From: Candidatus Aenigmatarchaeota archaeon
GTDB taxonomy: Archaea > Aenigmatarchaeota > Aenigmatarchaeia > CG10238-14 > SCSR01
NCBI GenBank assembly: GCA_038999725.1
Contig: JAWBWS010000001.1
Span: forward strand, 41,620 to 105,619
DNA: 64,000 nucleotides
Direction: 5' to 3'
Shown here: positions 1,481 to 57,556 of the stretch, piece by piece
Position numbering within the stretch: position 1 is the first letter of the stretch
How the letters are laid out: each line of letters starts with the position of its first letter
Made by a program: the position numbers and the translations under genes
Notes under the pieces: generated by a model
Seen by the model: only the letters and a program-made list of their open reading frames with translations
Database searches by the model: none
Told to the model about the DNA's origin: nothing

Positions 1481-4400
1481 ATGAAAAAATTTGCAGGTTG
1501 GTTATTTTTTGTACTTATTTCTTTATTGATAATCTACATCTTAAGAACAAGGCTTACTGGCTTTTTTGTAGGTTTTGGTCCACCTGCCGGCGAATTTGAG
1601 TGGTGGAATGTATCTTGGAGATACAGGCTTAGGTTAGAAGTGAATTCCACTACATACAACAGAGTTGATTGGCCGATAGAGTATCATATAAATTTTACCG
1701 AGTTATTGCCTTCTGGCACTTTTGATGAAAATTCTATAAGAGTGATAGAATACAGCCCTTCTGGTTCAATTCTATATGAAATACCAAGTCAGTTTGAAAA
1801 AGACGAAAACTTTGACGCTTCTTCCAATGCAGTAGGAACATTAGTTTTCCTTATGAATGGGACTACACAGGCCAACTCTAAAAGGATATATTTTGTTTAC
1901 TATGATACTCAAGAAAATGGACTCAAATCTCCTCCAAATTATCCAATAGGTTTGAGATATAGTTGGGATGGTCGAATTGTTAATGTTAACAACACTATAC
2001 TTAAATTCTATTTTGACACAAATAGAGGAGAGAACACTTCTGGAATTTATCATGTAGAAGATATGGGTGGTACTGTTGTTATAACAGCAAGTCCTTCAAG
2101 TAGAACTGCTGAATATCTTGAATACTCTAATGGTACAACTAACTTAACTTTTGATTTAAGAAACAGCGTGAGTTTTTTTGAAGGACCAATAAGACTAACT
2201 ATCAAACAAGTTGGAGATGAGGTAGTTTTTGGGGATCCTGAAGAAAAAACTGGTGAAGCTAGAGTGATTAAGAAATATCATATTTACAATAAGGTAGGAG
2301 CTCAAGAATATGGAACTTTCATAAAAATAGTACAAAAAATTGAAAACATAGCAGATTTTGCTATAGAAAGAAGATCTACACCAGCAGGAGCTTTAGCTTT
2401 TGACCTCGACAGAACACTCTCTTCAGGCTCTATATACACTCTAGACTTCAATTCTTCTGATCCATATTCTTGGGTGTGGGGCTCGGGATATGGTGGAGAG
2501 ATAGTTGGTATAATCAACCTTTTAGAAGAGGGAACTTCTAAGTATTTTTCAACAAACAGCACAAGTTATGGAAGAATAGGAATCCAGCTTGACACAGAAA
2601 CTATACCTTCTGGCTCTTACATCAAACAAGACTCTTTGATATATTTTGCTGCTTGGGGTGGAAGTGATGCTGTCTCAGAATTTTTAGCAATAAAAGACAG
2701 GTTTGTCAATCCTGTCAATATTGTAGAATATTTGCCTGAAGCTTGGTATGTCACAATATCCCCATCTACAAATGCTACAATCTACAACAGAAATGAAACT
2801 GTTTTAATACTTGGAAATATTTCTCTTGGTGATCCTTACCATTTGATAAAATACATGAATGCGACCTTAGACATGGGTACACCCTCACCAGAAGATGATC
2901 AAACTATAATTTTGTACGATGATGGGACTCATGGTGATTTAGAAGAAGGAGACATGGTATTCACAAATCTTTTCTATCTACCTAATTATGCAACTATTGG
3001 TACATGGACGATTAATTTCACAACTTTCACAGAAAATTTTGAATTCTTGAACTCAACAGTCCTTGCTTTCAATGTTACAAATGTGTTAAATGTTAGTGTT
3101 GTTGTCACAAATAAAAAACCTATGGTCGGCTCAATCGTGATCGCAAACATATACCTAAAAAATTACAGGCAAGACTCTTGGATTGCCGGAGCAACTATAA
3201 ACTGTAGTTTCGATTCAAATGAAGTGATAAATAAGACAGATTACAACAATGGAACTTATTCAGTTAATTTTACTGCTCCCGCCCAAGAGGGAGAATATAT
3301 CTTGGAATGCAATGCAACTAAAAATGGAAATTTCGGAAGTGGTACATATACATTCACAGCAGAACCCGCAAACACAAGCATGATTATAGCTGTTCAACCT
3401 CAAAATCCAATCGTCTCTCATGTAAGTTTGTATGAAAATGACAGCTTTGTGATAGAAGCGAACATGAGCAACATCGGAAATGCCACATCCTATTCCACAA
3501 ACATAACTCTGGAACTTTTGAGTGGATGGTATGCGAATATAACTTTAGAGCAGTGTGGAGATGTGGAAAAGAATAGCTATTGTTTGAAGGGATTCAACAT
3601 AACTGTCCCAAATGGTACCTTACCAGGAGATTATTACATAAATATAAGTGCGAGTTGGAAGAATCCTGACCAAACAATCTCGTCAAACAAAACTGATGTA
3701 AGAGTAACAGTTGAATCAAACCCAAAAGTAGATGTTAAGCAAGAAAGGGTTTCTTCTGAATGTGGAGATGGAATTTGGAGCATAGTAGGAAATTTCACAA
3801 TTTTGTCGATAGGAAATGATGCTTTAGAAGGTATTACATTCTCTTGCGTTTCTGGTGAAGTTTGTGAGAATTTTGTGGTTAAGTTTATACCAGAAAGTAT
3901 ATCTAGCATACCCGTGGGAGCAAATGAAAATGTCTCAATAAATGTTACAATACCCTTAGGCTTTACACCTGGAACTTATGAGGGAATTGTGAATGTTTCT
4001 GCTAGCAATGATGGTTTTGATACTTTTATTCTTGAAGTTCGTGTTCCACCAAAGACCAATGTTTCCATAGTATCAAACATATCAAGCTACACTGCAAGCA
4101 AAATAACGAAAGAGGATAATGAAACTTTTTATTTCGAGATTAATGCAACAAATATAGGAAATGGAAGTGCAAGATTTGTAAATATAAGTGTTTCTCCTCC
4201 TCTTGGTTGGCTTGTAATGCCAAGCTTAGAAGAATGTGGAAATCTTATAAAAGATGCTAGTTGCCAGAAAGAGTTCAATGTAACAATTCCTGGAGCCACG
4301 TCACCAGGAAATTATTTAGTAAATATTTCAATAAACTGGACCCAGTCAGACAATTCCATGGGAACAAATAAAACTTCTATAACAGTAGCTGTAACTTCAA

Positions 4401-7345
4401 ATCCTTTGATAAGTGTAAGTGAAGACGAAATTTCTGGTATAGTTCACGATGGTGCTGAAGAAATAGTAGGAAATTTCACCATTTTGTCGATAGGAAATGA
4501 TGCTTTAGAAGGTATTACATTCTCTTGTGTTTCTGGTGAAGTTTGTGAGAATTTTGTGGTTAAGTTTATACCAGAAAGTATCTTAATTCTTCCTGAAAAC
4601 TCAAACCAATCTATTATGGTTAATGTCACTGTACCATTAAATTATCCAAACGGAACTTATGAGGGAATTGTGAATGTTTCTGCTAGCAATGATGGTTTTG
4701 ATACTTTTATTCTTGAAGTTCGTGTTCCTGAAAACAGGACATGGGACCTACAACCAGAATATTGTGAACGATCAACACAACAACCTGAAGGTGTGGTTTG
4801 TGAGGTTAATGTAACAAATAAAGGAAATGTAAAAATAGGTTTTATTGTTCAGCCGGAAGAAGGCAACTATACAAAAGTCAATGAAACCAGCTTTGAAGTG
4901 GATAGACTGAGTTGGCATGCATTCAAAATAACTTACAATGTTACTGATGTGCCACCTGGAACTTATAATTCAACTTTTGTTGTAGATGCTGTACAAATAG
5001 ATGCAAATCCTGACAATAAAACTGTCGTAGTTTCCTTAGTTCCTTATATCCCACCTGTGATAAACATTTCTGTAACTCCAAATGAAACGGAGCAAAACAT
5101 GAGTGTTTTGATTTCTGCAAATGTCACGGATAGGTCAGGAAGTGGAATTGTTTGGACAAAAGTCAATATAACTAGACCAGATGGTATTATCGACTCTTTT
5201 GACATGTTTCTCTTGGAAACAAGCGGGAACTTAACAAGGTGGGAGATAACCTATCCCAATGGTATAAGCGGAAGCACTCTTGAAAGAGGAATTTACAATA
5301 TAACTGTTTATGCAAGAGATAACATAGGTAATGAAGGAAATTCTAATTCTTCTTTTTCGGTTTACATAAAGCTCAACATCTTGGTGTCCACACTTTCTGA
5401 TAAATATTATCAGGGAGATACAGGCTCTGTTTATTACAGTGTTAGAGATTTCACAAACAACCCAATCGAAAACTCTACTGTAAACTTCAGCATAATTGAT
5501 TCCCAAAGAAATATCACTTACCTTTCTCCAAACTTCCAAACAAATTCTGATGGTACCATAACTCCAATGCCAACTTTTTCTATTCCATCAGATGCTCCCT
5601 TGGGAAATTATACCCTTATCTCTAATTCAAAATTTTTTGATAAGGTTGCTAACAAGATTGTTGAAAAACAAGTCAATCAAACTTTCCAAGTTCTATCAAG
5701 AACGGTTACTGTTACCGGTCTATTTGCTGATATAGAGACTGCTATTGTATGGTATCCTGAAAATATAATGAAGTTTGGGATTTTGGTTTATAATGGTGAA
5801 GGTAAATCTGTTGATCCTACATCCATGAACCTAACAGTTTATGATCCTGCTGGCAATCTATACTTCACTGCCAATTTATCTCAAATGACCAAGCAAGCAA
5901 CAGGCTTCTACATTTATCAGTATGCCATGCCTGTTAACACTCCAAGTGGAATGTTTTTAGCTGTTTTAAATTTGAGTCAAAATGAATTCCAAACCATGAA
6001 GCTCAAAGCTTTTAGAGTTGCTCATGGCGGTCCATATGATGTGAGGATAACTCTTCTTGAAAATGAAGTTGAGCAAGGAAGCTACTTAGATTTTATTCTT
6101 GTGATAGAAAACAAAGGAGAAGTTTCTCAAGATGTTTTTATTCAGTATTGGGTTTCTTCTCAAAATACAACTTACTACACCACATCAGAAGCTGTTTACA
6201 CTCCAGCCTTGACAAATCAAAGTTTTACAAGAAGTGCTTATATTTATTCAAATCAGCCTTTGGGAAATTACTTTTTAAATGTGAAAGTTACTTATGATAC
6301 AGTCCAACCACCAATCTTGGCAAATGCAAGCTTTACTGTTATTGCAAGAACTTTAAACATTACTCCACCATCACCAGTTCATGTAAGTTATCCTTATCTA
6401 ACAGGTGCAATTCCCATCCCAACCCCAACTGAAAAAATAATTGCAAGTATTTTCATCTCCCGCTACAATAGTAACATAAGCTTGACAAGAGGTTTTTCTA
6501 GAATTGAAACTGTTATTATTGAGAACAATGGTCAAATTGATTTGGAAAATGTAAGCCTATTCTTGCTTGGGATACCAACAAGTTGGTTCAATGTGACTCC
6601 TGAAAATTACAAGCAACTTGAAAGGGGAAAATCAACACCCTTCTTAATAACATTCTACATCCCCAGAAATATTAATCCTGGCGAATATCATGCCACATTA
6701 GTAGCAACTTCTGGTGTCGTCAGTGACCAAAGAAAAATAACTCTAACAATCTTTCAATCAATGAAAGAGCTTCTGGCCCAAGAAATGAGTAAGATAGAAG
6801 AAGAACTGCAAGAGCTTATAATTGATACTAAAGTTGCAGAAAAAGAGGGAAAAGACGTCTCTGCCATTCTTTTGCTGATAGATGGGATAAAAACACAAAT
6901 GAAGCTTGCAAAGGAAAATATTGAAAATGAAAATTTTGAAGAAGCGCTAAAAAATATAAACACTGCTAGAGATTTGATTTTAAGAGCTAGGGAAGTGCTT
7001 AGTAAGCTTGAGGTTTTGAAGGCCAAGGCAGTTATTCCTTGGTGGCTCATACTACCAATTTTGCTTCCTGTTTTGATTTTTAGCTTGTATTTCATCTATA
7101 GGAGAAGACCAAACATCGTAAGACCCTGGCTGATTCAACTTGAGAGAGTTGTGAATTTGGCTAAAAAGGGAAGGGAAAGCAAAGAAGAGTTGATAAAGGA
7201 GAGGGAAAAATTGGCAAGAATGCTTGAAATTTTGGAGAAAGAGAGGAGGGAAAAAATAATAAGTCATAGTGCTTACGTTGAGATGAAAAAAGGAATAGAG
7301 AAGAAGATAGAGAGAATAGAGAAGAAAATTTTGAGCTTAAAATAG
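1481..7345 (+). CDS. Giant (1954 aa) cell-surface protein with multiple Ig-like/beta-sandwich domains, C-terminal TM and cytoplasmic coiled coil
   Basis: N-terminal hydrophobic segment; WWNVSWRYR (DUF2341-like start); LYDDGTHGD motif; very many NxS/T sequons; internal 227-aa repeat; TM near the C-terminus. Confidence 0.8.
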   Translation: MKKFAGWLFFVLISLLIIYILRTRLTGFFVGFGPPAGEFEWWNVSWRYRLRLEVNSTTYNRVDWPIEYHINFTELLPSGTFDENSIRVIEYSPSGSILYEIPSQFEKDENFDASSNAVGTLVFLMNGTTQANSKRIYFVYYDTQENGLKSPPNYPIGLRYSWDGRIVNVNNTILKFYFDTNRGENTSGIYHVEDMGGTVVITASPSSRTAEYLEYSNGTTNLTFDLRNSVSFFEGPIRLTIKQVGDEVVFGDPEEKTGEARVIKKYHIYNKVGAQEYGTFIKIVQKIENIADFAIERRSTPAGALAFDLDRTLSSGSIYTLDFNSSDPYSWVWGSGYGGEIVGIINLLEEGTSKYFSTNSTSYGRIGIQLDTETIPSGSYIKQDSLIYFAAWGGSDAVSEFLAIKDRFVNPVNIVEYLPEAWYVTISPSTNATIYNRNETVLILGNISLGDPYHLIKYMNATLDMGTPSPEDDQTIILYDDGTHGDLEEGDMVFTNLFYLPNYATIGTWTINFTTFTENFEFLNSTVLAFNVTNVLNVSVVVTNKKPMVGSIVIANIYLKNYRQDSWIAGATINCSFDSNEVINKTDYNNGTYSVNFTAPAQEGEYILECNATKNGNFGSGTYTFTAEPANTSMIIAVQPQNPIVSHVSLYENDSFVIEANMSNIGNATSYSTNITLELLSGWYANITLEQCGDVEKNSYCLKGFNITVPNGTLPGDYYINISASWKNPDQTISSNKTDVRVTVESNPKVDVKQERVSSECGDGIWSIVGNFTILSIGNDALEGITFSCVSGEVCENFVVKFIPESISSIPVGANENVSINVTIPLGFTPGTYEGIVNVSASNDGFDTFILEVRVPPKTNVSIVSNISSYTASKITKEDNETFYFEINATNIGNGSARFVNISVSPPLGWLVMPSLEECGNLIKDASCQKEFNVTIPGATSPGNYLVNISINWTQSDNSMGTNKTSITVAVTSNPLISVSEDEISGIVHDGAEEIVGNFTILSIGNDALEGITFSCVSGEVCENFVVKFIPESILILPENSNQSIMVNVTVPLNYPNGTYEGIVNVSASNDGFDTFILEVRVPENRTWDLQPEYCERSTQQPEGVVCEVNVTNKGNVKIGFIVQPEEGNYTKVNETSFEVDRLSWHAFKITYNVTDVPPGTYNSTFVVDAVQIDANPDNKTVVVSLVPYIPPVINISVTPNETEQNMSVLISANVTDRSGSGIVWTKVNITRPDGIIDSFDMFLLETSGNLTRWEITYPNGISGSTLERGIYNITVYARDNIGNEGNSNSSFSVYIKLNILVSTLSDKYYQGDTGSVYYSVRDFTNNPIENSTVNFSIIDSQRNITYLSPNFQTNSDGTITPMPTFSIPSDAPLGNYTLISNSKFFDKVANKIVEKQVNQTFQVLSRTVTVTGLFADIETAIVWYPENIMKFGILVYNGEGKSVDPTSMNLTVYDPAGNLYFTANLSQMTKQATGFYIYQYAMPVNTPSGMFLAVLNLSQNEFQTMKLKAFRVAHGGPYDVRITLLENEVEQGSYLDFILVIENKGEVSQDVFIQYWVSSQNTTYYTTSEAVYTPALTNQSFTRSAYIYSNQPLGNYFLNVKVTYDTVQPPILANASFTVIARTLNITPPSPVHVSYPYLTGAIPIPTPTEKIIASIFISRYNSNISLTRGFSRIETVIIENNGQIDLENVSLFLLGIPTSWFNVTPENYKQLERGKSTPFLITFYIPRNINPGEYHATLVATSGVVSDQRKITLTIFQSMKELLAQEMSKIEEELQELIIDTKVAEKEGKDVSAILLLIDGIKTQMKLAKENIENENFEEALKNINTARDLILRAREVLSKLEVLKAKAVIPWWLILPILLPVLIFSLYFIYRRRPNIVRPWLIQLERVVNLAKKGRESKEELIKEREKLARMLEILEKERREKIISHSAYVEMKKGIEKKIERIEKKILSLK
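3782..4728 (+). repeat. Internal direct repeat (period 681 bp) within the giant gene
   Basis: 3782-3900 vs 4463-4581: 119 bp with 2 synonymous mismatches; 3971-4047 vs 4652-4728: 77 bp identical. Confidence 0.9.
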
Positions 7346-7352
7346 CTGACTA

Positions 7353-8222
7353 TTATCCAGATGCGTAGACAGTTAGAGTTGCAACATTGAGGTTGCCACT
7401 TGGAATCCCATAGGGAGCGTAAACATTCAAGGTTAAAGTGTGAATATTGCCAGGAGGAAGACTATACTCTTGTATGTATCTAGAGTTTGCACAAGAAGTA
7501 AAACCACTTCTTTTATCGTATTTGTAAATGTAAATTTTTGTGCAGTCATAGTAGGCGGCAACACAGCTTCCGTAGAGCGGAGCAGTAGCTCGATTTACAC
7601 TGAAGTAACCCCAATTGACATCTCCACTATCAAGTTGTATGTTACTTGTTGTTGGGGTTCTTGTTTCTACAGTACCATTGTCAACATCATCTTCTATTGC
7701 AAATTGTGCTCCGGTATTGTTGCAATAGCCATTTGTACCGTTACCGAGAAGCCATATATACTCAAAACTTGTGTTCTTGAAGAAACCCCATGCTACCGGA
7801 GAATTCACATTATTTTTTTGTAGGTTTGATATTTCTTCTGTCCAGTTCCACTCTATTCTGCCTGCAAAGAAGAATTTGTTATATGTCTCGTTCTTAAGGA
7901 CTATTACTCCACCTGCTGCATACTCTGTTGCATTGCTCGAACCATAAGGTCTTTTAGTTTCGTCTGTTAAAGTGTCTACATAAGCATAGATCTGAGTGAC
8001 ATTCAAAGAGCCGATGTTAATGATGTCTAAAAGCTTGGTACCACCTGTCTGACCGGGCTGCACGTTTGTCCATGAAAGGACACTTGGTACTACAGATATT
8101 TGGGCAACAGTTTTTACACTAACATTTATTGTTGCTGTATCATTCACGTTTTCCGCTCTAACGTTTGTTAAAAATGCTAGAAAAGTTATCAATAGGGATA
8201 AGCACAAGGCTTTTTCATTCAT
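7353..8222 (-). CDS. Secreted pilin/fimbrial-like protein, paralog A
   Basis: Signal peptide, no C-terminal anchor; N-terminal strand TATINVSV then ISVVPSVLSWTNVQPG; C-terminal VYAPYGIPSG...TLTVYASG. Confidence 0.6.
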   Translation of the reverse strand: MNEKALCLSLLITFLAFLTNVRAENVNDTATINVSVKTVAQISVVPSVLSWTNVQPGQTGGTKLLDIINIGSLNVTQIYAYVDTLTDETKRPYGSSNATEYAAGGVIVLKNETYNKFFFAGRIEWNWTEEISNLQKNNVNSPVAWGFFKNTSFEYIWLLGNGTNGYCNNTGAQFAIEDDVDNGTVETRTPTTSNIQLDSGDVNWGYFSVNRATAPLYGSCVAAYYDCTKIYIYKYDKRSGFTSCANSRYIQEYSLPPGNIHTLTLNVYAPYGIPSGNLNVATLTVYASG

Positions 8223-8958
8223 TCTCTCCTATATATTATTGTTAATCATAGCATTTAAACATTAGTATTAAATATTAATTTAAAAGAAAAACAATATAAT
8301 AATGTGAAAAAAGATAAAAAAGAGGCCATACTTAATGTTTTGAAGGCAAACCCGGATGGTTTGACCATCCAGGAAATTTCCAAGCTTACTGGAATGAGTA
8401 GAATTACTACTACAATTTATGTTCATGAGCTTCTTGGGGAAGGAAAAATCACTGAAAGGAAGATTGGAGCCTACAGGCTCTTCTATCTGAAAGATAAGTA
8501 TTTGGAAGTGGTAAAAGAAAAGGAAATTCTAGAAAAAATAAAAGAAAAAATAAAGTAGTCTGGTTCTAGCCAGATGCGTATACTGTGAAGGTTGCTGTAC
8601 TGAGACTACCATCCGGAATTCCATATGGTACGTAAACTCTTAGTGTTAGTGTGTGAGTTTCACCTGGCACTAAGTTTGGTGCTTGTATGTATCTAGAGTT
8701 TGCACAAGAAGTAAAACCACTTCTTTTATCGTATTTGTAAATGTAAATTTTTGTGCAGTCATAGTAGGCGGCAACACAGCTTCCGTAGAGCGGAGCAGTA
8801 GCTCGATTTACACTGAAGTAACCCCAATTGACATCTCCACTATCAAGTTGTATGTTACTTGTTGTTGGGGTTCTTGTTTCTACAGTACCATTGTCAACAT
8901 CATCTTCTATTGCAAATTGTGCTCCGGTATTGTTGCAATAGCCATTTGTACCGTTACC
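7469..8958. repeat. 277-bp identical block shared by paralogs A and B
   Basis: 7469-7745 is identical to 8682-8958 (offset 1213); further identical patches at 7762-7802/8975-9015 and from 7834/9047. Confidence 0.9.
8304..8558 (+). CDS. Small winged-helix (HTH) transcription regulator, divergent from paralog A
   Basis: ILNVLKANPDGLTIQEISKLTGMSRITTTIYVHELLGEGKI plus wing; GTG start. Confidence 0.8.
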   Translation: MKKDKKEAILNVLKANPDGLTIQEISKLTGMSRITTTIYVHELLGEGKITERKIGAYRLFYLKDKYLEVVKEKEILEKIKEKIK

Positions 8959-9789
8959 TAAAGCCCAAAAATATTCAAAACTTGTGTTCTTGAAGAAACC
9001 CCATGCTACCGGAGAGTTTATATTTGAAAGATCTTTATTTCCCACATCTTCTGTCCAGTTCCACTCTATTCTGCCTGCAAAGAAGTAAGTAGAATCAGTC
9101 TCATTTTTGAAGACTATAACCCCACCAGCTGCATATTTTGTTGGGTCATCTTTTCCGTAAGGCCTTTCAGCTTCGTCCGTTAATGTGTCTACATAAGCAT
9201 AGATATTGGTCACATTTACAGAGCCTGTGTTTATTATGTTTAGATATTGTGCTGTTCCAGCACTCCCTGGATTAATATTAGACCAAGATAAGCTCTCGGG
9301 TATTACCGAGATTTGTGCGACAGCTGCAACACTTACGCTAACAGTAACTGTATCTTCTACCGCTAATGTTAATGGGGGAAAGAGGAGAAAGCTGATAATC
9401 ACTAGAAGAATTAGCTTCTCGCAACTTTTGATTTTAACATTACTGTAAACCTTCATATTTAATATTTTTGTTAATACTATTATTTAAATCTAATGTTTCA
9501 AATGATTTTTCGATTGGTATTTATTTAAAGAAGAAAAATTGATGATAAAAGCTAAAGCAACATTAATTTTAAATGCTAAGTTAATAAATACCCTTAAACA
9601 AAAATATTAAATATGGAAGATTTTAAGCAAAAAATTCTTGAAATTCTTAAAAAAGAACCAAGGGGTTTAACAATTCAAGATATTTCAAGGCTCGCTAAGA
9701 TGAATAGATTTAAAGCTACAATTTATGTTCATGAGCTTCTTGGGGAAGGAAAAATCACTGAAAGGAAGATTGGAGCCTACAGGCTCTTC
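8410..9789 (+). repeat. 74-bp identical block shared by the two HTH genes
   Basis: 8410-8483 is identical to 9716-9789. Confidence 0.9.
8566..9456 (-). CDS. Secreted pilin/fimbrial-like protein, paralog B
   Basis: Clear paralog of 7353-8222; signal peptide; TVTVSVSV...ISVIPESLSWSNINPG. Confidence 0.6.
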   Translation of the reverse strand: MKVYSNVKIKSCEKLILLVIISFLLFPPLTLAVEDTVTVSVSVAAVAQISVIPESLSWSNINPGSAGTAQYLNIINTGSVNVTNIYAYVDTLTDEAERPYGKDDPTKYAAGGVIVFKNETDSTYFFAGRIEWNWTEDVGNKDLSNINSPVAWGFFKNTSFEYFWALGNGTNGYCNNTGAQFAIEDDVDNGTVETRTPTTSNIQLDSGDVNWGYFSVNRATAPLYGSCVAAYYDCTKIYIYKYDKRSGFTSCANSRYIQAPNLVPGETHTLTLRVYVPYGIPDGSLSTATFTVYASG

Positions 9790-9807
9790 AAACTGAAAAA
9801 AGATTAA
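9613..9807 (+). CDS. Small winged-helix regulator, divergent from paralog B
   Basis: Paralog of 8304-8558. Confidence 0.8.
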   Translation: MEDFKQKILEILKKEPRGLTIQDISRLAKMNRFKATIYVHELLGEGKITERKIGAYRLFKLKKD

Positions 9808-10076
9808 ATGTAAATTATGAATCCTTCCTTTTCCAATTCCTCTAGAACTGGAGCCAAACCTACTTTTGCCTCTTCTGTTGAAATATTGGCCAACTTTGCC
9901 ACTTCCTCTGCTATTTGATCAAAAGTTTTTTTCCCATCACACATCATTATAAGTTTAACAAGCCATTTTTCTATCTTCCACATTTTACTTCCATCAAAAG
10001 TAGCATAGTAAGTACCTAAGTGATCTATAATCTTCAAATTCTTCGCTTTCAACGGTCTTTTTTCTTCCATAAACAC
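9804..10076 (-). CDS. PqqD-like / winged-helix small protein
   Basis: CDGKKTFDQIAEEVAK...LEELEKEGFI pattern. Confidence 0.5.
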   Translation of the reverse strand: MFMEEKRPLKAKNLKIIDHLGTYYATFDGSKMWKIEKWLVKLIMMCDGKKTFDQIAEEVAKLANISTEEAKVGLAPVLEELEKEGFIIYI

Positions 10077-10106
10077 TTATTTTAATTTTAAATAAATAGT
10101 TTAAAT

Positions 10107-11042
10107 ATGCGATTTGGCTTGGTCATGGTGTTTGTAATTTTGTTGTTTTCGATTCCTCAGGCCCTGGCTGTAGAATTTACTGTTGGTGTTTCTCCTAATA
10201 TTTTAGATTTGGGTGAAATAGAGGCCGGTTCTACAAAGTTGGTAAAATTTTTCCTAGTTACTCCTTCGTCCGAGCCTTTATTGGTTTATCTTGAACCTGA
10301 GAATGGTAATCTAGACTTCTTTTCCAGGGATCAATATAACCAGCTTCTCTTTAATTATTCGGAAGAGGAAGTAACAAGTTGGGTAGAATTTTTATCAAAC
10401 CCTATAGAGCTTAAACCAGCTAACGAGACTTTAAAAACTAGAGGAGGGGAAATAAGGGGATGGAGAGAAATTAGTTTTCTGTTGAATGTGCCAAGAGAAG
10501 CAGAGCCTGGATACCATTTGCTTAAGATAAAACCTTCCCCCTATGTTCCGTCTGAAACACTCGGCCAAGCTGGGGCAAGAGTTGTAGCTATAACTTCTGT
10601 TACCATTTTGTTCAATTTGCCAGGAGAGATTAGAAGGGAGGGTGTAATCCTTGATGTAACCCCAGGAAAACATCTTGGCGACAGGCTTGAAATAAACACA
10701 TATTTCAAAAATAGCGGTACAGTCACAATTTCCGCAAAAGCCTTTCAAGGCGTTTTTAAAGATGGTGAGTTAATAGAAAATCTAACCTCACCGATTCAAT
10801 TTGTTAAACCTGGTGAAGTTGCAATTTTAAAAACATTTCTACCTTCAAGCAAAATCTCATCTGGAGAGTTCTTGATTGCCACGACAGTGAGTTATACTAC
10901 AGGCTCAGCATCAAAAAATTCAACTTTAGTGATAAAAGCTGCTCCGCCTATAATAGAAAAGCCTGTAGAATTTCCTTTATGGATAGTGATAATTATTTTA
11001 ATAGTGTTGATAGCAGTCTTGATATACAAGTGGTATAAATGA
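10107..11042 (+). CDS. Membrane-anchored surface protein with two beta-sandwich domains (DUF916/DUF3324-like or chaperone-like)
   Basis: Signal peptide; VGVSPNILDLGEIEAG; FKNSGTV; VKPGE; C-terminal TM followed by basic residues. Confidence 0.55.
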   Translation: MRFGLVMVFVILLFSIPQALAVEFTVGVSPNILDLGEIEAGSTKLVKFFLVTPSSEPLLVYLEPENGNLDFFSRDQYNQLLFNYSEEEVTSWVEFLSNPIELKPANETLKTRGGEIRGWREISFLLNVPREAEPGYHLLKIKPSPYVPSETLGQAGARVVAITSVTILFNLPGEIRREGVILDVTPGKHLGDRLEINTYFKNSGTVTISAKAFQGVFKDGELIENLTSPIQFVKPGEVAILKTFLPSSKISSGEFLIATTVSYTTGSASKNSTLVIKAAPPIIEKPVEFPLWIVIIILIVLIAVLIYKWYK

Positions 11043-11554
11043 GGAAGAAGATTTGGTTACCGTTATTTATTTCAATTTTTTTAATTTTATTCACCTTGTT
11101 AACCAATCTTCCCTATCAGCCAAAAGGTTTAGTTGAAAACAGAACTTTTGAGAAATATTATGATCTCTTCTTCACATACGAAATAACAAGATATCCAACT
11201 TCAGCACAAGTTCTTCCTGCTCAACCAAATCATGAAAAGCTAACTTTAGGTGTTGTGGTTGATCCTTGGAACTTAAATTTTGGGATTGTTCCTGCTGGCA
11301 AAAATTTTGTTACTAGATTTGTTGATTTAACAAATCTGAAAGAAAAAGATGCTAAAATCATGGTTAGAGTTTATGGCAATATTTCACCTTTCGTCAATTT
11401 CACAAAAAACAATTTTATCCTCAAGCCAAATGAAAATGCCATGATAGAGGTTAAATTTTATGCTGAGAAAGCAGAAATTGGTAATTATTCTGGTGAAATA
11501 GATGTTGTTGTGCAGAGGCCAAGATATGATTTCTTGTATTACTTCTGGAAGTAG
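11039..11554 (+). CDS. Membrane-anchored Ig-like surface protein
   Basis: N-terminal TM; VVVDPWNLNFGIVPAG; GNYSGEI; ATGA overlap with the upstream gene. Confidence 0.55.
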   Translation: MRKKIWLPLFISIFLILFTLLTNLPYQPKGLVENRTFEKYYDLFFTYEITRYPTSAQVLPAQPNHEKLTLGVVVDPWNLNFGIVPAGKNFVTRFVDLTNLKEKDAKIMVRVYGNISPFVNFTKNNFILKPNENAMIEVKFYAEKAEIGNYSGEIDVVVQRPRYDFLYYFWK

Positions 11555-12299
11555 GGGAATTGTAATCTTTCTGCTTTTTTCCCTCTTATTTTTCTTTTCT
11601 CTATCGAGGGCAGCTATAATTGAAGTTGACGTCTCCAGAAATCTTGAAGGAAAAATAAGCTCTTTTTCCTGTGATTCATCTAAGGATTTGATTGCATTCT
11701 ATCTTGAATTTTACAACACTGGCAGCATAGCTTATAGAGCAAGGGTGAGAGTTGATATCATTAACAATTCTAAAATCGCTTTCACTGCATGGAGTGGAGA
11801 AAAAATTTTGATGCCAGGAGATAGAAAAAATTTTGAAGTTTATTTGTATGACAATTCCACAGGCAATATTACAGTGAGAGCAAGGATATACTTTGGAAAT
11901 GAAATTGAGGAAAGAATTTTATCTGTAAAAAAAGAAAGCTATTTTTTGTCGCAAGATATTTTTGAAATAAAAAATTTCAGAACTTATGATAATTTTGTTG
12001 TTTTCGATATCAAAGCTAGAAGAAATGTAAAGGATGTTGTGGTTATACCTCATGGCTTCCCTCAAAGCTGGATATTTGAACAGAAGAAAATTAAGTTCTT
12101 GAAGGAAAATGAAGAAAAAACCGTGGCTCTTAACTATAATCCAGCTGTTTGGAGCGAGGAGAAATTAACTTTAATCGTAGCTTCGGATGGGGGAAAGTAT
12201 AAAACTGAAAAAACTTTTGAAATGAGAAAAGAAGTTGGAATTATCTGGCTCATTCACTACCTCATTGATAAACTCAAGCTATTTTTCAACTCGGCTTGA
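11502..12299 (+). CDS. Secreted Ig-like surface protein (start possibly 11526)
   Basis: Hydrophobic signal; FYNTGS and LMPGD motifs; hydrophobic C-terminus. Confidence 0.55.
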   Translation: MLLCRGQDMISCITSGSRGIVIFLLFSLLFFFSLSRAAIIEVDVSRNLEGKISSFSCDSSKDLIAFYLEFYNTGSIAYRARVRVDIINNSKIAFTAWSGEKILMPGDRKNFEVYLYDNSTGNITVRARIYFGNEIEERILSVKKESYFLSQDIFEIKNFRTYDNFVVFDIKARRNVKDVVVIPHGFPQSWIFEQKKIKFLKENEEKTVALNYNPAVWSEEKLTLIVASDGGKYKTEKTFEMRKEVGIIWLIHYLIDKLKLFFNSA

Positions 12300-12321
12300 T
12301 TAAAGTTCTTAAGATTTTTTC

Positions 12322-12391
12322 ATATTGTAACAATATAGTAACCATAATAAAGTAATATTTAAATATCAATAAAACAATATTGTAACTATAT
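12322..12391. promoter_or_regulatory. Palindromic operator pair flanking a TATA box upstream of an HTH gene
   Basis: Perfect palindrome ATATTGT-A-ACAATAT at 12322-12336; one-mismatch copy at 12377-12391; TTTAAATA at 12358-12365 between them. Confidence 0.6.
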
Positions 12392-25406: not shown

Positions 25407-25518
25407 TAGCCCCGGGCAGATTCGAACTGCCGTGTTCAGGTTTCTTTCTTCATCTTTTATCCGAGCTTTAGACTTTAAGTCCAAAGCCTGACATCCTTGA
25501 CCGCTAGATGACGGGGCT
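25407..25518 (-). tRNA. tRNA-Gln(TTG) with 39-nt intron at 37/38 (25442-25480)
   Basis: Cloverleaf AGCCCCG/CGGGGCT, GTTCGAATC T-loop, strict BHB (CTTT/AAAG helix; GGA and AAA bulges); no encoded CCA. Confidence 0.93.
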
Positions 25519-35067: not shown

Positions 35068-35151
35068 GCCCCAGTAGCTCAGCCTGGAAGAGCAACTACC
35101 TCGTAAAGTCGAAAAAGTAGTGGGTCGAGGGTTCAAATCCCTCCTGGGGCT
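35068..35151 (+). tRNA. tRNA-Thr(CGT) with 10-nt intron at 37/38 (35106-35115)
   Basis: GCCCCAG/CTGGGGC acceptor; ACTAC/GTAGT anticodon stem around a 17-nt loop. Confidence 0.88.
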
Positions 35152-36568: not shown

Positions 36569-36685
36569 GCGCTGGTAGTCCAGTCGAGAATGACTCTGGA
36601 TTGGTCTAAGACGTCGATTTAAGCGGAACCCTGCCAACCAGAGGACAGAGCGGCGGAGACCCGGGTTCAAATCCCGGCCAGCGCA
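36569..36685 (+). tRNA. tRNA-Gly(GCC) with three introns (36586-36601 in D-loop; 36617-36628 at 29/30; 36637-36650 at 37/38)
   Basis: Removing 16+12+14 nt leaves a 75-nt canonical cloverleaf; each junction forms a BHB-like motif. Confidence 0.85.
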
Positions 36686-37368: not shown

Positions 37369-37486
37369 GCAGGGGTAGCCAAGCGGTTAAAGGCGGCAGG
37401 CTCAAGTTTGGTTGAGCTTTGATCTGAGATGAAAGAAGGAACCTGCTGGCTTAGTGCCTTCGTGGGTTCGAATCCCACCCCCTGCA
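37369..37486 (+). tRNA. tRNA-Leu(CAA) with 34-nt intron at 37/38 (37407-37440)
   Basis: GCAGGGG/CCCCTGC acceptor; long variable arm; GCAGG/CCTGC anticodon stem; 84 nt mature. Confidence 0.92.
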
Positions 37487-42929: not shown

Positions 42930-43011
42930 GGGTCCGTGGTCTAACGGTAGGACGCCAAGAAAGCGGAACCCTCACACGGTGGAGAATTGGGTTCAACTCC
43001 CAACGGACCCA
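42930..43011 (+). tRNA. tRNA-Val(CAC) with 11-nt intron at 29/30 (42958-42968)
   Basis: GGGTCCG/CGGACCC acceptor; CCACC/GGTGG stem restored on intron removal; 71 nt mature. Confidence 0.88.
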
Positions 43012-45168: not shown

Positions 45169-45735
45169 CTATGGAGTAAGGCGCTTAATTTCGTAATAAG
45201 TGCAATCATTCTCTCTGTCTACAACCGCCCACACGAAAGTCGCCCTTATATTATGTGCAAGTCTCACTGCCCTCGACATTTCTGGTAAAGAAAAGGCTGC
45301 TTCTTCTGGAACAGCATGAACTACAAATTTTGTGTGTTCATGTGGGGCTTTTGGTCCTCTTACAAGCTTTACTCCTCTTTCGTAAACTCTGAAATGGGCA
45401 CCAAATTTAAAACCAGTTTTCACCAGATAGCCTCTCTCCCTCAAGTCGCGATAAACTACAAATTGAGGATGAAATTGGTTTACTATTTTTGTTGCAATTT
45501 CTAAAAACTCCTTCAAGTCTACATATCTCCTCTTTTCTCCCTCTTTTAAAAAAACTTTCATTCTCCCTTTCTCTAAAAGATAGGCTGCCTCCACGAGCTC
45601 CAATTCAAGCCTACTGGGATTTTCTTCAGGAACTGGTTTACCAAAACCAGAATCATCATAAAGTCTAACAGCATCCTTATCCCAAATTATTACTCTGTTT
45701 TCCACTAATTCTCCTTCCCAAATTTTCTCTGCCAT
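45169..45735 (-). CDS. endA: tRNA-intron (splicing) endonuclease, single-unit type
   Basis: LELVEAAYL; YRDLRERGY; KTGFKFGAHFRVY; RLAHNIR. Confidence 0.93.
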   Translation of the reverse strand: MAEKIWEGELVENRVIIWDKDAVRLYDDSGFGKPVPEENPSRLELELVEAAYLLEKGRMKVFLKEGEKRRYVDLKEFLEIATKIVNQFHPQFVVYRDLRERGYLVKTGFKFGAHFRVYERGVKLVRGPKAPHEHTKFVVHAVPEEAAFSLPEMSRAVRLAHNIRATFVWAVVDRENDCTYYEIKRLTP

Positions 45736-51615: not shown

Positions 51616-51709
51616 GCCTCGTTAGCTCAGTTGGTAGAGCATCCGAAGAGTTAAAACTCTGGTGAACCTTGTAAGCGGAGGGTCGTGGGTTCAAATCCCA
51701 CACGAGGCT
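51616..51709 (+). tRNA. tRNA-Thr(TGT) with 21-nt intron at 30/31 (51646-51666)
   Basis: GCCTCGT/ACGAGGC acceptor; strict BHB with CATC/GGTG helix and inner AGAG/CTCT stem; 73 nt mature. Confidence 0.92.
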
Positions 51710-53716: not shown

Positions 53717-53820
53717 GGGGTCGTCGTCTAACCAGGTAGGACAGCAGGCTCCAGGTTCAATGGAGCTCTGACAAAAGATGAAGAAACCTGTATGTGAGGG
53801 TTCAAATCCCTCCGACCCCA
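53717..53820 (+). tRNA. tRNA-Trp(CCA) with 31-nt intron at 37/38 (53755-53785)
   Basis: GGGGTCG/CGACCCC acceptor; GCAGG/CCTGT stem; 73 nt mature. Confidence 0.92.
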
Positions 53821-55520: not shown

Positions 55521-56339
55521 ATGCAGAGCCCTGAGCAAGTTGTTAACAGAATAAAGTCTGTCCAAGTTCAAGGTGCAAAAGAAATAGCTCTTTATTCTTT
55601 AAGATATTTAAGAAAGTTTTGTGAAAAATATGGTTTTGGATTGAAGTTTGAAGTCGTTGCTATGATGCTTGAAAATGCTAGACCAACCGCTGTTGTTTTA
55701 CACAATTGCTTAGAAATTCTCAAAAAAGAGAGGAAACTTAGAACAATCGACAAGCTTATAAAAGAATTACAAGAATCCACAAAAAAAATAGCAAAGATTG
55801 GACAAAAAATAGTAAAGAATAATCAAAAAATTTTGACTCATTGCCACTCGGGAGAAGCCTTATCTATAATAAAAGAAGCTGCAAGACTTGGTAAAAAAAT
55901 CTCTGTTTATGCAACAATTACAGAACCTTTAAAGCAAGGTATCAAAACAGCCCGAGAGCTGGCAAGAGAAAAAATTCCTGTAACTTTGGGTGAAGACATA
56001 GCTGTAGGTCATTTGATGTATTATGCTGATATTATAATCGTGGGCTCTGACGCCATCAGGAAAGAAGGTTTTGTCAATAAAGTTGGTACTTGGTTAATAG
56101 CAGAAGAAGCTAAAAGACATAAAAAACCTTTTTATGTGGTCGGGAGCCATTTCAAGTTCGACTCTAGAAAGAAGCTTGTACTTGAAGAAAGACCTGCTTC
56201 TGAAATTTTACCAAAACCGATAAGAGGGGTGAAGGTTAGAAATCCTGCTTTTGATCTTGTACCTTGGAGTTATGTCACAGCTGTAATAACTGATAAAGGG
56301 ATTTTTAAACCGGAAAAAATAAAAGAGATGATAAGATGA
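55521..56339 (+). CDS. Ribose-1,5-bisphosphate isomerase (eIF-2B family)
   Basis: VQGA; RPTAV; THCHS; VGSD; NKVGT; NPAFD; directly upstream of rbcL. Confidence 0.9.
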   Translation: MQSPEQVVNRIKSVQVQGAKEIALYSLRYLRKFCEKYGFGLKFEVVAMMLENARPTAVVLHNCLEILKKERKLRTIDKLIKELQESTKKIAKIGQKIVKNNQKILTHCHSGEALSIIKEAARLGKKISVYATITEPLKQGIKTARELAREKIPVTLGEDIAVGHLMYYADIIIVGSDAIRKEGFVNKVGTWLIAEEAKRHKKPFYVVGSHFKFDSRKKLVLEERPASEILPKPIRGVKVRNPAFDLVPWSYVTAVITDKGIFKPEKIKEMIR

Positions 56340-57556
56340 AATATTCAGACTATCTGGACTTCAAATATAAGCCTGGAAAAAATGATTTGATTTGTTGTTT
56401 TAGAGTTGAACCTGAAAAGGGAGAAAGTATAAAAGAGGTGGCAGGAGCTATTGCTGCTGAAAGTAGCATAGGAACTTGGACTGAAGTTTCAACAAAACCA
56501 TATGTAAAGAAATTAGCTGCAAGAGTTTTTGAAATAAAAGAAGATTTTGTGAAAATAGCTTACCCGCTTGACTTGTTTGAACCAGGAAACTTACCAAGCA
56601 TCTTGAGTGGAATTGCTGGGAATATTTTTGGTATGAAGCATCTGAAAAATTTAAAGTTGGTTGATGTGAAATTTCCAGAAAAAATTTTAAAAAGTTTTAA
56701 AGGACCTAAGTATGGGATAGAAGGAATAAGAAAGATTTTAAAAGTGAGGGGAAGACCATTGATAGGAACTATAATCAAGCCTAAGATTGGTCTTAAAAGT
56801 GACGATCATGCAAAAGTTGCTTACGAAGCTTGGGTTGGTGGTTGTGATCTTGTCAAGGATGATGAAAATTTGAGCTCTCAAAAATTCAATAAATTTGAAG
56901 AGAGGTTGAAAAAGACTTTTAAGATGAAGGAAAAAGCAGAAAGAGAAACTGGAGAAAAGAAGGCTTACATGATAAACATAACAGCTGAAACTGAAGAAAT
57001 GATCAAAAGGGCAAAAATTGTTGAAGAAATTGGAAATGAATATGTGATGATTGACGTTATTACAGTTGGGTGGTCTGCCTTACAGACTTTAAGAAATAAA
57101 GATTTTGATCTTGTGCTTCACGGTCATAGAGCTGGACATGCTATCATAACAAAAAACCCAAAACATGGGATTTCTATGAAGGTTTTGGCAAAGCTTATGA
57201 GGATTATTGGCATTGATCAATTACATGTTGGTACTGGAGTTGGAAAGATGTTTGAAAGTAAAGAAGAAGTGTTGGAAAATTGTAGGGTTTTGAAAGAAAA
57301 GATGTGGAAATTTAAGCCTGTGATGCCTGTTGCTTCTGGTGGTCTTCATCCTGCCTTAATTCCAAAAATTGTTGAAATTTTTGGAAAAAATGTTGTTATT
57401 CAAGCTGGTGGTGGAATACATGGTCACAAGCTCGGTACAAGAGCAGGGGCGATTGCCATGAGACAAGCAATTGATGCTGTAGAAAGAGGAATTCCTTTGA
57501 AAAAATATGCGGCAAGCCATAAAGAGCTTAAAGTTGCCTTAGAGGGGTTTAAATGA
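56336..57556 (+). CDS. rbcL: RubisCO form III
   Basis: AESSIGTW; GTIIKPKIGL; KDDEN; HRAGH; HVGT; GKM; SGG; QAGGG - all catalytic motifs present. Confidence 0.96.
   Translation: MKYSDYLDFKYKPGKNDLICCFRVEPEKGESIKEVAGAIAAESSIGTWTEVSTKPYVKKLAARVFEIKEDFVKIAYPLDLFEPGNLPSILSGIAGNIFGMKHLKNLKLVDVKFPEKILKSFKGPKYGIEGIRKILKVRGRPLIGTIIKPKIGLKSDDHAKVAYEAWVGGCDLVKDDENLSSQKFNKFEERLKKTFKMKEKAERETGEKKAYMINITAETEEMIKRAKIVEEIGNEYVMIDVITVGWSALQTLRNKDFDLVLHGHRAGHAIITKNPKHGISMKVLAKLMRIIGIDQLHVGTGVGKMFESKEEVLENCRVLKEKMWKFKPVMPVASGGLHPALIPKIVEIFGKNVVIQAGGGIHGHKLGTRAGAIAMRQAIDAVERGIPLKKYAASHKELKVALEGFK

Follow-up and report, generated by a model that had tools for sequence, protein, structure and literature searches.

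In euryarchaea, the intron of tRNA-Trp contains a full box C/D RNA that guides 2'-O-methylation of C34 and U39 (Cm34 and Um39; PMC4090602, PMC11408192), a background that the preliminary description of the DNA studied here had given correctly. These introns have a median length of ~65 nt and carry boxes C, D', C' and D with two guides (PMC4090602). Reviews up to 2024 name the tRNA-Trp intron as the sole intron-nested guide (PMC4090602, PMC11408192), and the primary paper on N. equitans describes a further candidate, in tRNA-Met (PMC3491384); both known cases are full-size four-box RNAs of ~65 nt. Here we analyzed a 64,000-nt stretch of a Candidatus Aenigmatarchaeota contig (JAWBWS010000001.1; the whole stretch is called the window below), in which the introns of tRNA-Trp(CCA), tRNA-Leu(CAA) and tRNA-Gln(UUG) each carry an antisense to the host anticodon loop next to a compact D'/C' element with the sequence of a kink-loop (K-loop). 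From the sequence, we favor the reading that each intron is a minimal, single-motif relative of the box C/D guide RNA built into the pre-tRNA and guiding 2'-O-methylation of nucleotide 34 (Nm34), with a probability of roughly 0.5. The genes and intron parts in the window are as follows, N1 to N6 denoting successive positions within a box.

53717-53820, + strand: tRNA-Trp(CCA) gene with a 31-nt intron at 37/38 (Rfam 53.1 bits, ARAGORN -i, manual cloverleaf)
53755-53785, + strand: Trp intron, GUUCAA-UGGAGC-U-CUGA-CAAAAG-AUGAAGA-A (sequence and segmentation)
53761-53766, + strand: putative Trp guide UGGAGC, complement of G31-A36 (helix within the minimum free energy (MFE) fold; pairs covary across tRNA species)
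53768-53771, + strand: Trp D' box CUGA (N1 pairs with N6 of C', N2 with N5)
53778-53784, + strand: Trp C' box AUGAAGA, in the corrected register (invariance and N1-N6 covariation)
37369-37486, + strand: tRNA-Leu(CAA) gene with a 34-nt intron (37407-37440) at 37/38 (Rfam 49.5 bits, manual parse)
37412-37417, + strand: putative Leu guide UUGAGC, complement of G31-A36
37419-37422, + strand: Leu D' box UUGA
37429-37435, + strand: Leu C' box AUGAAAG (N5 and N6, A and A, pair with U and U of D')
25407-25518, - strand: tRNA-Gln(UUG) gene with a 39-nt intron (25442-25480) at 37/38 (Rfam 46 bits, manual parse)
25465-25473, - strand: putative Gln guide GUCUAAAGC (9 bp including one G·U, with G31-G37 and the first two intron nucleotides)
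25460-25463, - strand: Gln D' box CGGA (CUGA in the L031 ortholog)
25447-25453, - strand: Gln C' box AUGAAGA

The sequences and coordinates first reported for the three introns were exact on re-reading, and all three introns lie at 37/38. The host tRNAs share C32, U33, G37 and A38 and an anticodon stem of the form xCAGG/CCUGx, and tRNA-Gln(UUG) has A1-U72, as in archaeal tRNA-Gln. Each intron runs through a variable 5' part, the complement of nucleotides 31-36, one U, YNGA, 6 nt, AUGA and a purine-rich tail that ends GAAG-NA or AAAG-AA. The guide segment of the Gln intron reads (GUC)UAAAGC, and its helix buries the 5' splice site. A 19-nt degenerate pattern, AGCTNNGANNNNAGATGAA, matched with zero mismatches solely at the three introns in 64 kb, and the shorter 9-base pattern AGCNNNGANNNNNNATGA gave the same three matches only in the window, with a chance expectation of 0.48; the three matches share one offset from the anticodon complement, each inside a tRNA intron. 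A search of the Trp and Gln genes against Rfam at relaxed thresholds returned the tRNA model alone, and Rfam contains no matching family for the intron module. A match to sR17 in the relaxed search was noise (E=1.5).

Compared with the euryarchaeal pre-tRNA-Trp intron sRNA (H. volcanii; sR50 of Pyrococcus), the Trp intron is alike in host gene and 37/38 site, in the antisense upstream of a D-type box and in the +5 rule leading to C34, and in both systems a guide fold alternates with the bulge-helix-bulge (BHB) fold. The motif-bearing introns here are 29-43 nt long, however, with D'/C' only and one guide of 6-9 nt, and they occur also in Leu(CAA), Leu(UAA), Gln(UUG) and possibly Thr(UGU). The euryarchaeal type is defined by four boxes in ~60-100 nt with two guides for C34 and U39; the 31-nt Trp intron would work like half of such a unit and is not a member as defined. 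The 66-nt C/D-box-like sRNA in the intron of N. equitans elongator tRNA-Met likewise comes from a DPANN archaeon and is nested in an intron of a non-Trp tRNA (PMC3491384), but it is full-size and stable, whereas the module described here is half that size and has no terminal C/D motif. The trans-acting Pyrococcus C/D sRNAs are directed at the same nucleotide in a largely overlapping set of tRNAs (PMC7994747); they are independent genes with four boxes and guides of 10-12 nt that act in trans, whereas here the guide would lie inside its own substrate.

Two further comparisons concern the K motif itself. The synthetic half-mer, or hemi, box C/D ribonucleoproteins (RNPs) of Hardin and Batey (2006, PMC1635284) also combine one K motif with one guide, and they are active with L7Ae, Nop5 and fibrillarin; they are artificial, however, contain a kink-turn (K-turn) and a terminal stem, and have lost site specificity (PMC1635284). 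A natural cis version of the hemi RNP would need another means to fix the site. The K-loop of archaeal C/D sRNAs (Nolivos et al. 2005, cited in PMC7994747) has the same order of D' then C', a short loop, tandem sheared G·A pairs, a conserved RU of RUGA and a non-canonical stem toward the guide. Unlike in that K-loop, the 3b·3n pair is mostly U-A or U·G here, not U·U, and the partner C/D K-turn is lacking. Literature searches for K-turns or K-loops in tRNA introns and for Aenigmatarchaeota introns found nothing comparable, and the minimal single-K-loop form of an intron-encoded C/D guide is previously undescribed.

A scan of a genome collection with a pattern based on the motif gave 52 loci, 10 of them real and all in Aenigmatarchaeota, and yielded tRNA-Leu(UAA) with the guide UUAAGC. 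The other loci were chance matches in bacterial coding DNA, and matches in Nanoarchaeota (L002) and Methanobrevibacter (L015) were not tRNAs. Because the scan presupposed the motif, homologs were gathered by gene synteny, using as anchors the PfpI gene for tRNA-Gln, a conserved small open reading frame (ORF) for tRNA-Leu and undecaprenyl-diphosphate synthase for tRNA-Trp (18 metagenome loci). The comparison set contained 25 distinct motif-bearing introns from five tRNA species, made up of 23 Trp, Leu and Gln introns plus Thr(UGU); 18 of the 25 were found by synteny without use of the motif and are referred to as unbiased below. The labels JZ, DRTY and HHBFW of related contigs, from metagenome-assembled genomes (MAGs) and metagenomes, we take to denote hot-spring sites.

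The D' GA and the AUGA of C' were invariant in all 25 introns, including the A-U before the second GA. D' N1 and C' N6 formed a Watson-Crick pair in every intron (C-G 14, U-A 10, A-U 1), and the tRNA-Trp orthologs by themselves showed all three pair types. The next pair, N2 with N5, was U-A, U·G or C-G in 19/25 and G·A, A·A or U·U in the other 6. The loop between D' and C' measured 5-7 nt and varied in sequence. In a formal covariation count on a gap-free alignment of 16 sequences, 96.1% of cells were paired, a level reached by 0/500 shuffles, with four pairs altered on both sides and a covariation score of 0.514 vs 0.220; slid controls, in which the partners were shifted by 1-3 columns, gave 31-55% pairing. 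Judged by its sequence, the combination of NNGA and AUGANN is a C'/D' K-loop with predicted tandem sheared G·A pairs and the 3b·3n and 4b·4n pairs. The R-U of RUGAUGA is conserved, and the introns show both the internal D'/C' arrangement of archaeal box C/D sRNAs and the sequence hallmarks of K-turns and K-loops (tandem G·A, a short flanking helix, a conserved nucleotide 5' of G). The K-loop of tandem G·A pairs proposed in the preliminary description is thus borne out by invariance and covariation in relatives.

The box register needed correction. The layout originally proposed for all three introns, guide-T-D'-3 nt-C', stood for the guide, the spacer and D', and failed for the C' box, which had been placed 3 nt too far upstream; the true D'-C' spacing is 5-7 nt. 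The register AAGAUGA could be ruled out, as the nucleotide before AUGA is A or U in 5/18 unbiased introns (L061, L063, L065, and the Gln and Leu introns of the L056 organism), whereas the GA of the AUGA register was kept in 18/18. Since the N1-N6 covariation fits only the shifted register, the C' box is AUGANN(A), which lies 3 nt further 3' than AAGAUGA. D' is unchanged from the earlier definition, and the +5 count is therefore unaffected. The true register was revealed by a parallel G-to-U change in two introns of one organism (JGI contig Ga0315282_10000006), the Gln (L056 10795-10910, + strand) and Leu(CAA) (L056 ~1150-1310, - strand) introns, which have AUAUGA in place of AGAUGA. Co-evolution of a trans factor as the cause of this change was ruled out: the tRNA-Trp intron on the same contig (L066) retains AGAUGA.

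The antisense follows the anticodon, with UGG for CCA, UUG for CAA, UUA for UAA, and CAA or UAA for UUG, and it always ends in AG(C), facing G31-C32-U33. That each guide complements its own anticodon loop and changes with the anticodon, as first noticed in the window, holds in four tRNA species. The spacer between guide and D' was constant at 1 nt, its identity being U in 19, G in 3, A in 2 and C in 1; in L074 the nucleotide facing G31 is mismatched and the spacing is nonetheless retained. Because the spacer is fixed at 1 nt, the fifth nucleotide upstream of D' pairs with position 34 in 23/23 Trp, Leu and Gln introns, extending to homologs what had been claimed for the three window introns, in all of which it is correct. 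For the Trp intron this nucleotide is the G at 53763, which pairs with C34. The guide duplex is 6 bp long in the Trp and Leu introns, and in Gln it extends to as many as 9 bp.

The carriers aimed at N34 are Trp(CCA), Leu(CAA), Leu(UAA) and Gln(UUG). Position 34 is the target of four Pyrococcus C/D sRNAs, whose substrates are Leu(CAA), Leu(UAA), Met and Trp (PMC7994747); tRNA-Trp is known to bear Cm34 in several archaea, and S. acidocaldarius tRNA-Gln(UUG) contains Um34 (PMC7668247). By this comparison, the four carrier tRNAs are ones with known or predicted Nm34 in other archaea. The motif was missing from C34/U34 tRNAs with other introns in the same DNA, namely Thr(CGU), Thr(UGU) with its intron at 30/31 and an Ala(UGC)-like gene. 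The suggestion that all U34/C34 tRNAs with 37/38 introns might share the motif fails in the window itself, where the 37/38 intron of Thr(CGU) is 10 nt long and lacks it. An atypical tRNA gene next to that for L7Ae in L038 proved to be this Ala(UGC)-like gene (G3:U70), which has a non-canonical intron without a K-loop. A possible second type was found in tRNA-Thr(UGU) of two relatives, both with K-loop introns at 37/38.

L066 5622-5729, - strand: tRNA-Thr(UGU), K-loop UCGA..AUGAGA
L069 4189-4294, - strand: tRNA-Thr(UGU), K-loop UUGA..AUGAAA

In these introns the stretch before D' duplicates the anticodon stem's 5' strand and base-pairs with nucleotides 38-43; D'+5 therefore falls on U39, the second methylation site of the classical tRNA-Trp intron RNP (PMC4090602, PMC11408192). 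This U39 type comprises two sequences only, and the L066 intron can alternatively form an ordinary hairpin.

The guide helix has to be set against the fold that splicing requires. In this lineage the BHB central helix pairs the 3'-terminal NAAG of the intron with C32-U33-N34-N35. Motif-free short 37/38 introns (Thr(CGU) in the window and in L058) use their 3' ends for the central helix and contain no further antisense, and the K-loop introns retain the terminal GAAG or AAAG element. As the BHB can be built from the intron 3' end in motif-free and K-loop introns alike, the guide is a second, additional antisense. The central helix (32-35 with intron nucleotides n-5 to n-2) forms 4/4 pairs in Gln, 3/4 in Trp and 2/4 in Leu(CAA), a relaxed form; the motif-free introns of the lineage likewise reach 3/4. 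We also considered the guide helix as the BHB central helix in a bulge-helix-loop variant; this would put the 3' cut 2 nt past the guide, off the exon border, and is contradicted in Gln, where the guide spans the 5' splice site and a perfect canonical BHB forms from the intron 3' end.

RNAfold placed the guide helix in the MFE structure of all three window introns, and the enforced BHB fold was 6-9 kcal/mol less stable than the guide fold. In these models the two folds are mutually exclusive and the guide fold is the default, in line with the earlier proposal that the guide duplex competes with the BHB, a competition that the guide fold is predicted to win. In short Trp introns the GAAG of the K-loop 3' strand consists of the same nucleotides as the BHB helix strand (53780-53783 in the window, within the C' box), whereas the Leu introns and longer Trp introns (L019, L070, L074) have a separate GAAG after the C' box. 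The window also encodes the enzyme that must excise the K-loop introns.

45169-45735, - strand: tRNA-splicing endonuclease EndA, a single 188-aa alpha-type subunit (Pfam PF02778, 6.6e-18; PF01974, 9.4e-27)

The EndA subunit has the N-terminal and catalytic domains of a splicing endonuclease for BHB introns. It is a lone alpha-type subunit although intron positions in the genome are non-canonical; an 'L3' insertion of DPANN EndA is described in PMC5829648.

The observed part of the favored reading consists of the RNA architecture, how it is conserved and how the two folds compete; the protein steps are modeled on the established C/D RNP mechanism. By that analogy, L7Ae would bind the intron K-loop and Nop5-fibrillarin would dock on the L7Ae-bound K-loop, and the D'+5 ruler would place the wobble 2'-OH in the active site in cis. 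The expected products would be Cm34 in tRNA-Trp and tRNA-Leu(CAA) and Um34 in tRNA-Gln(UUG). Departure or remodeling of the RNP would then allow the 3'-terminal GAAG of the intron to pair with C32-U33-N34-N35, the BHB would form, and EndA would excise the intron. The specificity role of a second K motif might be replaced by the fixed cis geometry or, more speculatively, by Nop5-mediated pairing of two pre-tRNAs. One Aenigmatarchaeota MAG encodes an L7Ae homolog (L038 5237-5590, - strand) that is 56% identical to M. jannaschii L7Ae; its gene lies ~400 nt from the Ala(UGC)-like tRNA and ~2.6 kb from the K-loop tRNA-Leu(UAA). The DPANN archaeon N. equitans has fibrillarin, Nop56 and 27 C/D sRNAs, one of them inside a tRNA-Met intron (PMC3491384), and single-motif hemi-RNPs are catalytically active in vitro (PMC1635284).

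Several observations weigh against guided methylation. Neither fibrillarin nor Nop5 turned up in the window or in 321 kb of DNA sampled from relatives; tblastn with a fibrillarin sequence gave no match in the sampled loci, whereas L7Ae matched. To our knowledge, both proteins are near-universal in archaea. Canonical four-box C/D sRNAs gave no strict match in the 321 kb of Aenigmatarchaeota DNA, and loose four-box matches there fell in purine-rich coding regions. Each intron has one K motif: neither a terminal box C upstream of the guide nor a conserved CUGA past C' was seen in the introns or flanking exons, CCUGA being present in the Gln 3' exon only, with CCUGG in L056. In vitro, both C/D and C'/D' are needed for site specificity, and hemi-RNPs methylate non-specifically (PMC1635284); in H. 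volcanii the intron-guided methylation is dispensable (PMC4090602). The 6-bp guides of Trp and Leu fall short of the 10-12 nt of natural archaeal guides (PMC7994747). The N2-N5 pair is G·A or A·A in 5/25 introns, the L072 tRNA-Trp intron (UAAAGCAAUUGGAGCUUUGACGAU; 199-320, - strand) keeps the antisense and UUGA while its C' box is gone, a natural K-loop loss, and the Thr(UGU) ortholog is intronless in L019 and L021. A second, D-arm-region intron of the L053 tRNA-Gln (4600-4650; GAGAGGAUGAUUCUUUGACCUCGCGGA) resembles a K-turn hairpin (AGGAUGA ... UUGA with a GAG/CUC stem) and has no guide space, which suggests that a K motif in such introns is not necessarily part of a guide. Many of the source MAGs, moreover, presumably come from hot springs, judging by their site labels.

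That hairpin, together with the predicted blocking of the BHB by the guide fold, also speaks for a rather unlikely alternative, in which the K-loop is a structural or regulatory module that binds L7Ae without any methylation and chaperones pre-tRNA folding or times or gates splicing. The K-loop is well supported, whereas recruitment of fibrillarin is argued by analogy, and in short Trp introns the GAAG strand shared by K-loop and BHB would make a natural protein-controlled switch. What a structural module leaves unexplained is why the antisense keeps a fixed 1-nt distance, with D'+5 at N34 in 23/23, why the carriers are just the tRNAs with known Nm34, and why the second type, in Thr(UGU), is aimed at U39; moreover, motif-free introns splice without one. 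Chance likeness to C'/D' in an ordinary anticodon-intron helix with an A-rich hairpin, of no special function, might be suspected from the short boxes, the AT-rich genome, the common purine-rich GA motifs and the frequency with which loose patterns match coding DNA. We regard it as very improbable indeed, given six invariant nucleotides and one covarying pair over 25 introns and five tRNA species while neighboring loop positions vary, a pairing level not reached in 500 shuffles and a fixed guide offset.

The remaining alternatives are spread as an intron family and action in trans. A mobile or duplicated intron family, whose K-loop protects the excised, possibly circular intron RNA or aids its propagation, would suit the fluid intron content (all seven window tRNA genes are interrupted, and orthologs gain and lose introns), the sharing of AAGCGGAAC by Val and Gly introns, and the intron-nested, mobile C/D sRNAs discussed for N. 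equitans (PMC3491384). Orthologous introns are more alike than paralogous ones, however, and the antisense exactly fits each host anticodon, so that spread would demand re-tailoring every time. Common descent accounts for the similarity but not for the constraint, seen as purifying selection on GA and AUGA and compensatory change in the stem while the loops drift, and we think this explanation improbable. Action in trans, by which the unspliced pre-tRNA or the excised, circularized intron guides other tRNA copies or RNAs, has precedents in the H. volcanii intron RNP (PMC4090602, PMC11408192) and in the frequent circularity of archaeal tRNA introns and C/D sRNAs (PMC7994747). Six base pairs of guide would very probably not suffice to hold a target in trans, though, and there is no second guide or motif, which makes this distinctly improbable. 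The reading that we prefer, a cis guide for Nm34, can be extended tentatively: the introns may represent the smallest known natural RNA-guided modification unit, one K-loop with 6-9 nt of antisense, in at least 4-5 tRNA species and in N34 and U39 types, in which the guide fold locks out the BHB and methylation gates splicing.

Introns occur throughout the tRNA genes of the window. ARAGORN with introns allowed and manual parsing found 7/7 interrupted, at 37/38 in Gln(UUG), Leu(CAA), Trp(CCA) and Thr(CGU), at 29/30 in Val(CAC), at 30/31 in Thr(UGU) and at 31/32 in Gly(GCC). Under default settings ARAGORN reported just 2 odd tRNAs and with -i reported 6, some with misplaced intron boundaries and anticodons; because of these misplacements, which turned tRNA-Gln(UUG) into 'Stop(tta)' and tRNA-Leu(CAA) into 'cag', the cloverleaves were parsed by hand. 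Rfam matched an archaeal signal recognition particle RNA and six tRNAs in the window, every tRNA match being >76 nt. The Gly and Val introns have AAGCGGAAC in common. In relatives, orthologs of the window tRNAs have other introns or none; L006 Val and L016 Thr are intronless. Some K-loop carriers also have second introns, in the 5' strand of the anticodon stem or near position 26, the latter in the L072 tRNA-Trp gene. The remaining interrupted genes of the window and further second-intron carriers among relatives are these.

35068-35151, 36569-36685, 42930-43011 and 51616-51709: the window genes Thr(CGU), Gly(GCC), Val(CAC) and Thr(UGU), listed jointly
L038 2486-2634, - strand: tRNA-Leu(UAA), second intron at ~30/31
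L058 10960-11080, + strand: tRNA-Gln, second intron at ~29/30
L062, - strand: tRNA-Trp, second-intron carrier, near the GCUCCAG match

The window has a G+C content of 34.9% and encodes a PfpI-family protein with 93%-identical homologs in Candidatus Aenigmatarchaeota. At 55521-57556 (+ strand), an IF-2B-family gene, probably for ribose-1,5-bisphosphate isomerase, lies immediately 5' of a RuBisCO large-subunit gene, a pairing typical of the archaeal AMP salvage pathway. A very large ORF of 1954 aa occupies 1481-7345 (+ strand). Among the relatives, L053 carries a gene for a CDC48-type AAA ATPase with two intein/LAGLIDADG insertions (6920-12364, - strand), and L058 a radical-SAM gene with one (390-2780, + strand).

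Why archaeal tRNA introns are retained is an old open question, and the accepted functional case is just the tRNA-Trp C/D RNA, with the N. equitans candidate beside it. If the introns described here are guides, this suggests that wobble-base methylation would drive intron retention across a set of tRNAs, and the rule from in vitro work that two K motifs are required for site-specific methylation would be challenged. The pre-tRNAs would offer a compact, easily mutated substrate (~110 nt) for ordered methylation and splicing, and the signature would give annotators an intron class that standard tRNA and sRNA finders mis-call. Should the extended reading also hold, a hemi C/D RNP would achieve site specificity in vivo provided its guide and target lie in cis, and these introns would provide a model for the origin, or the decay, of bipartite C/D RNAs in reduced genomes.

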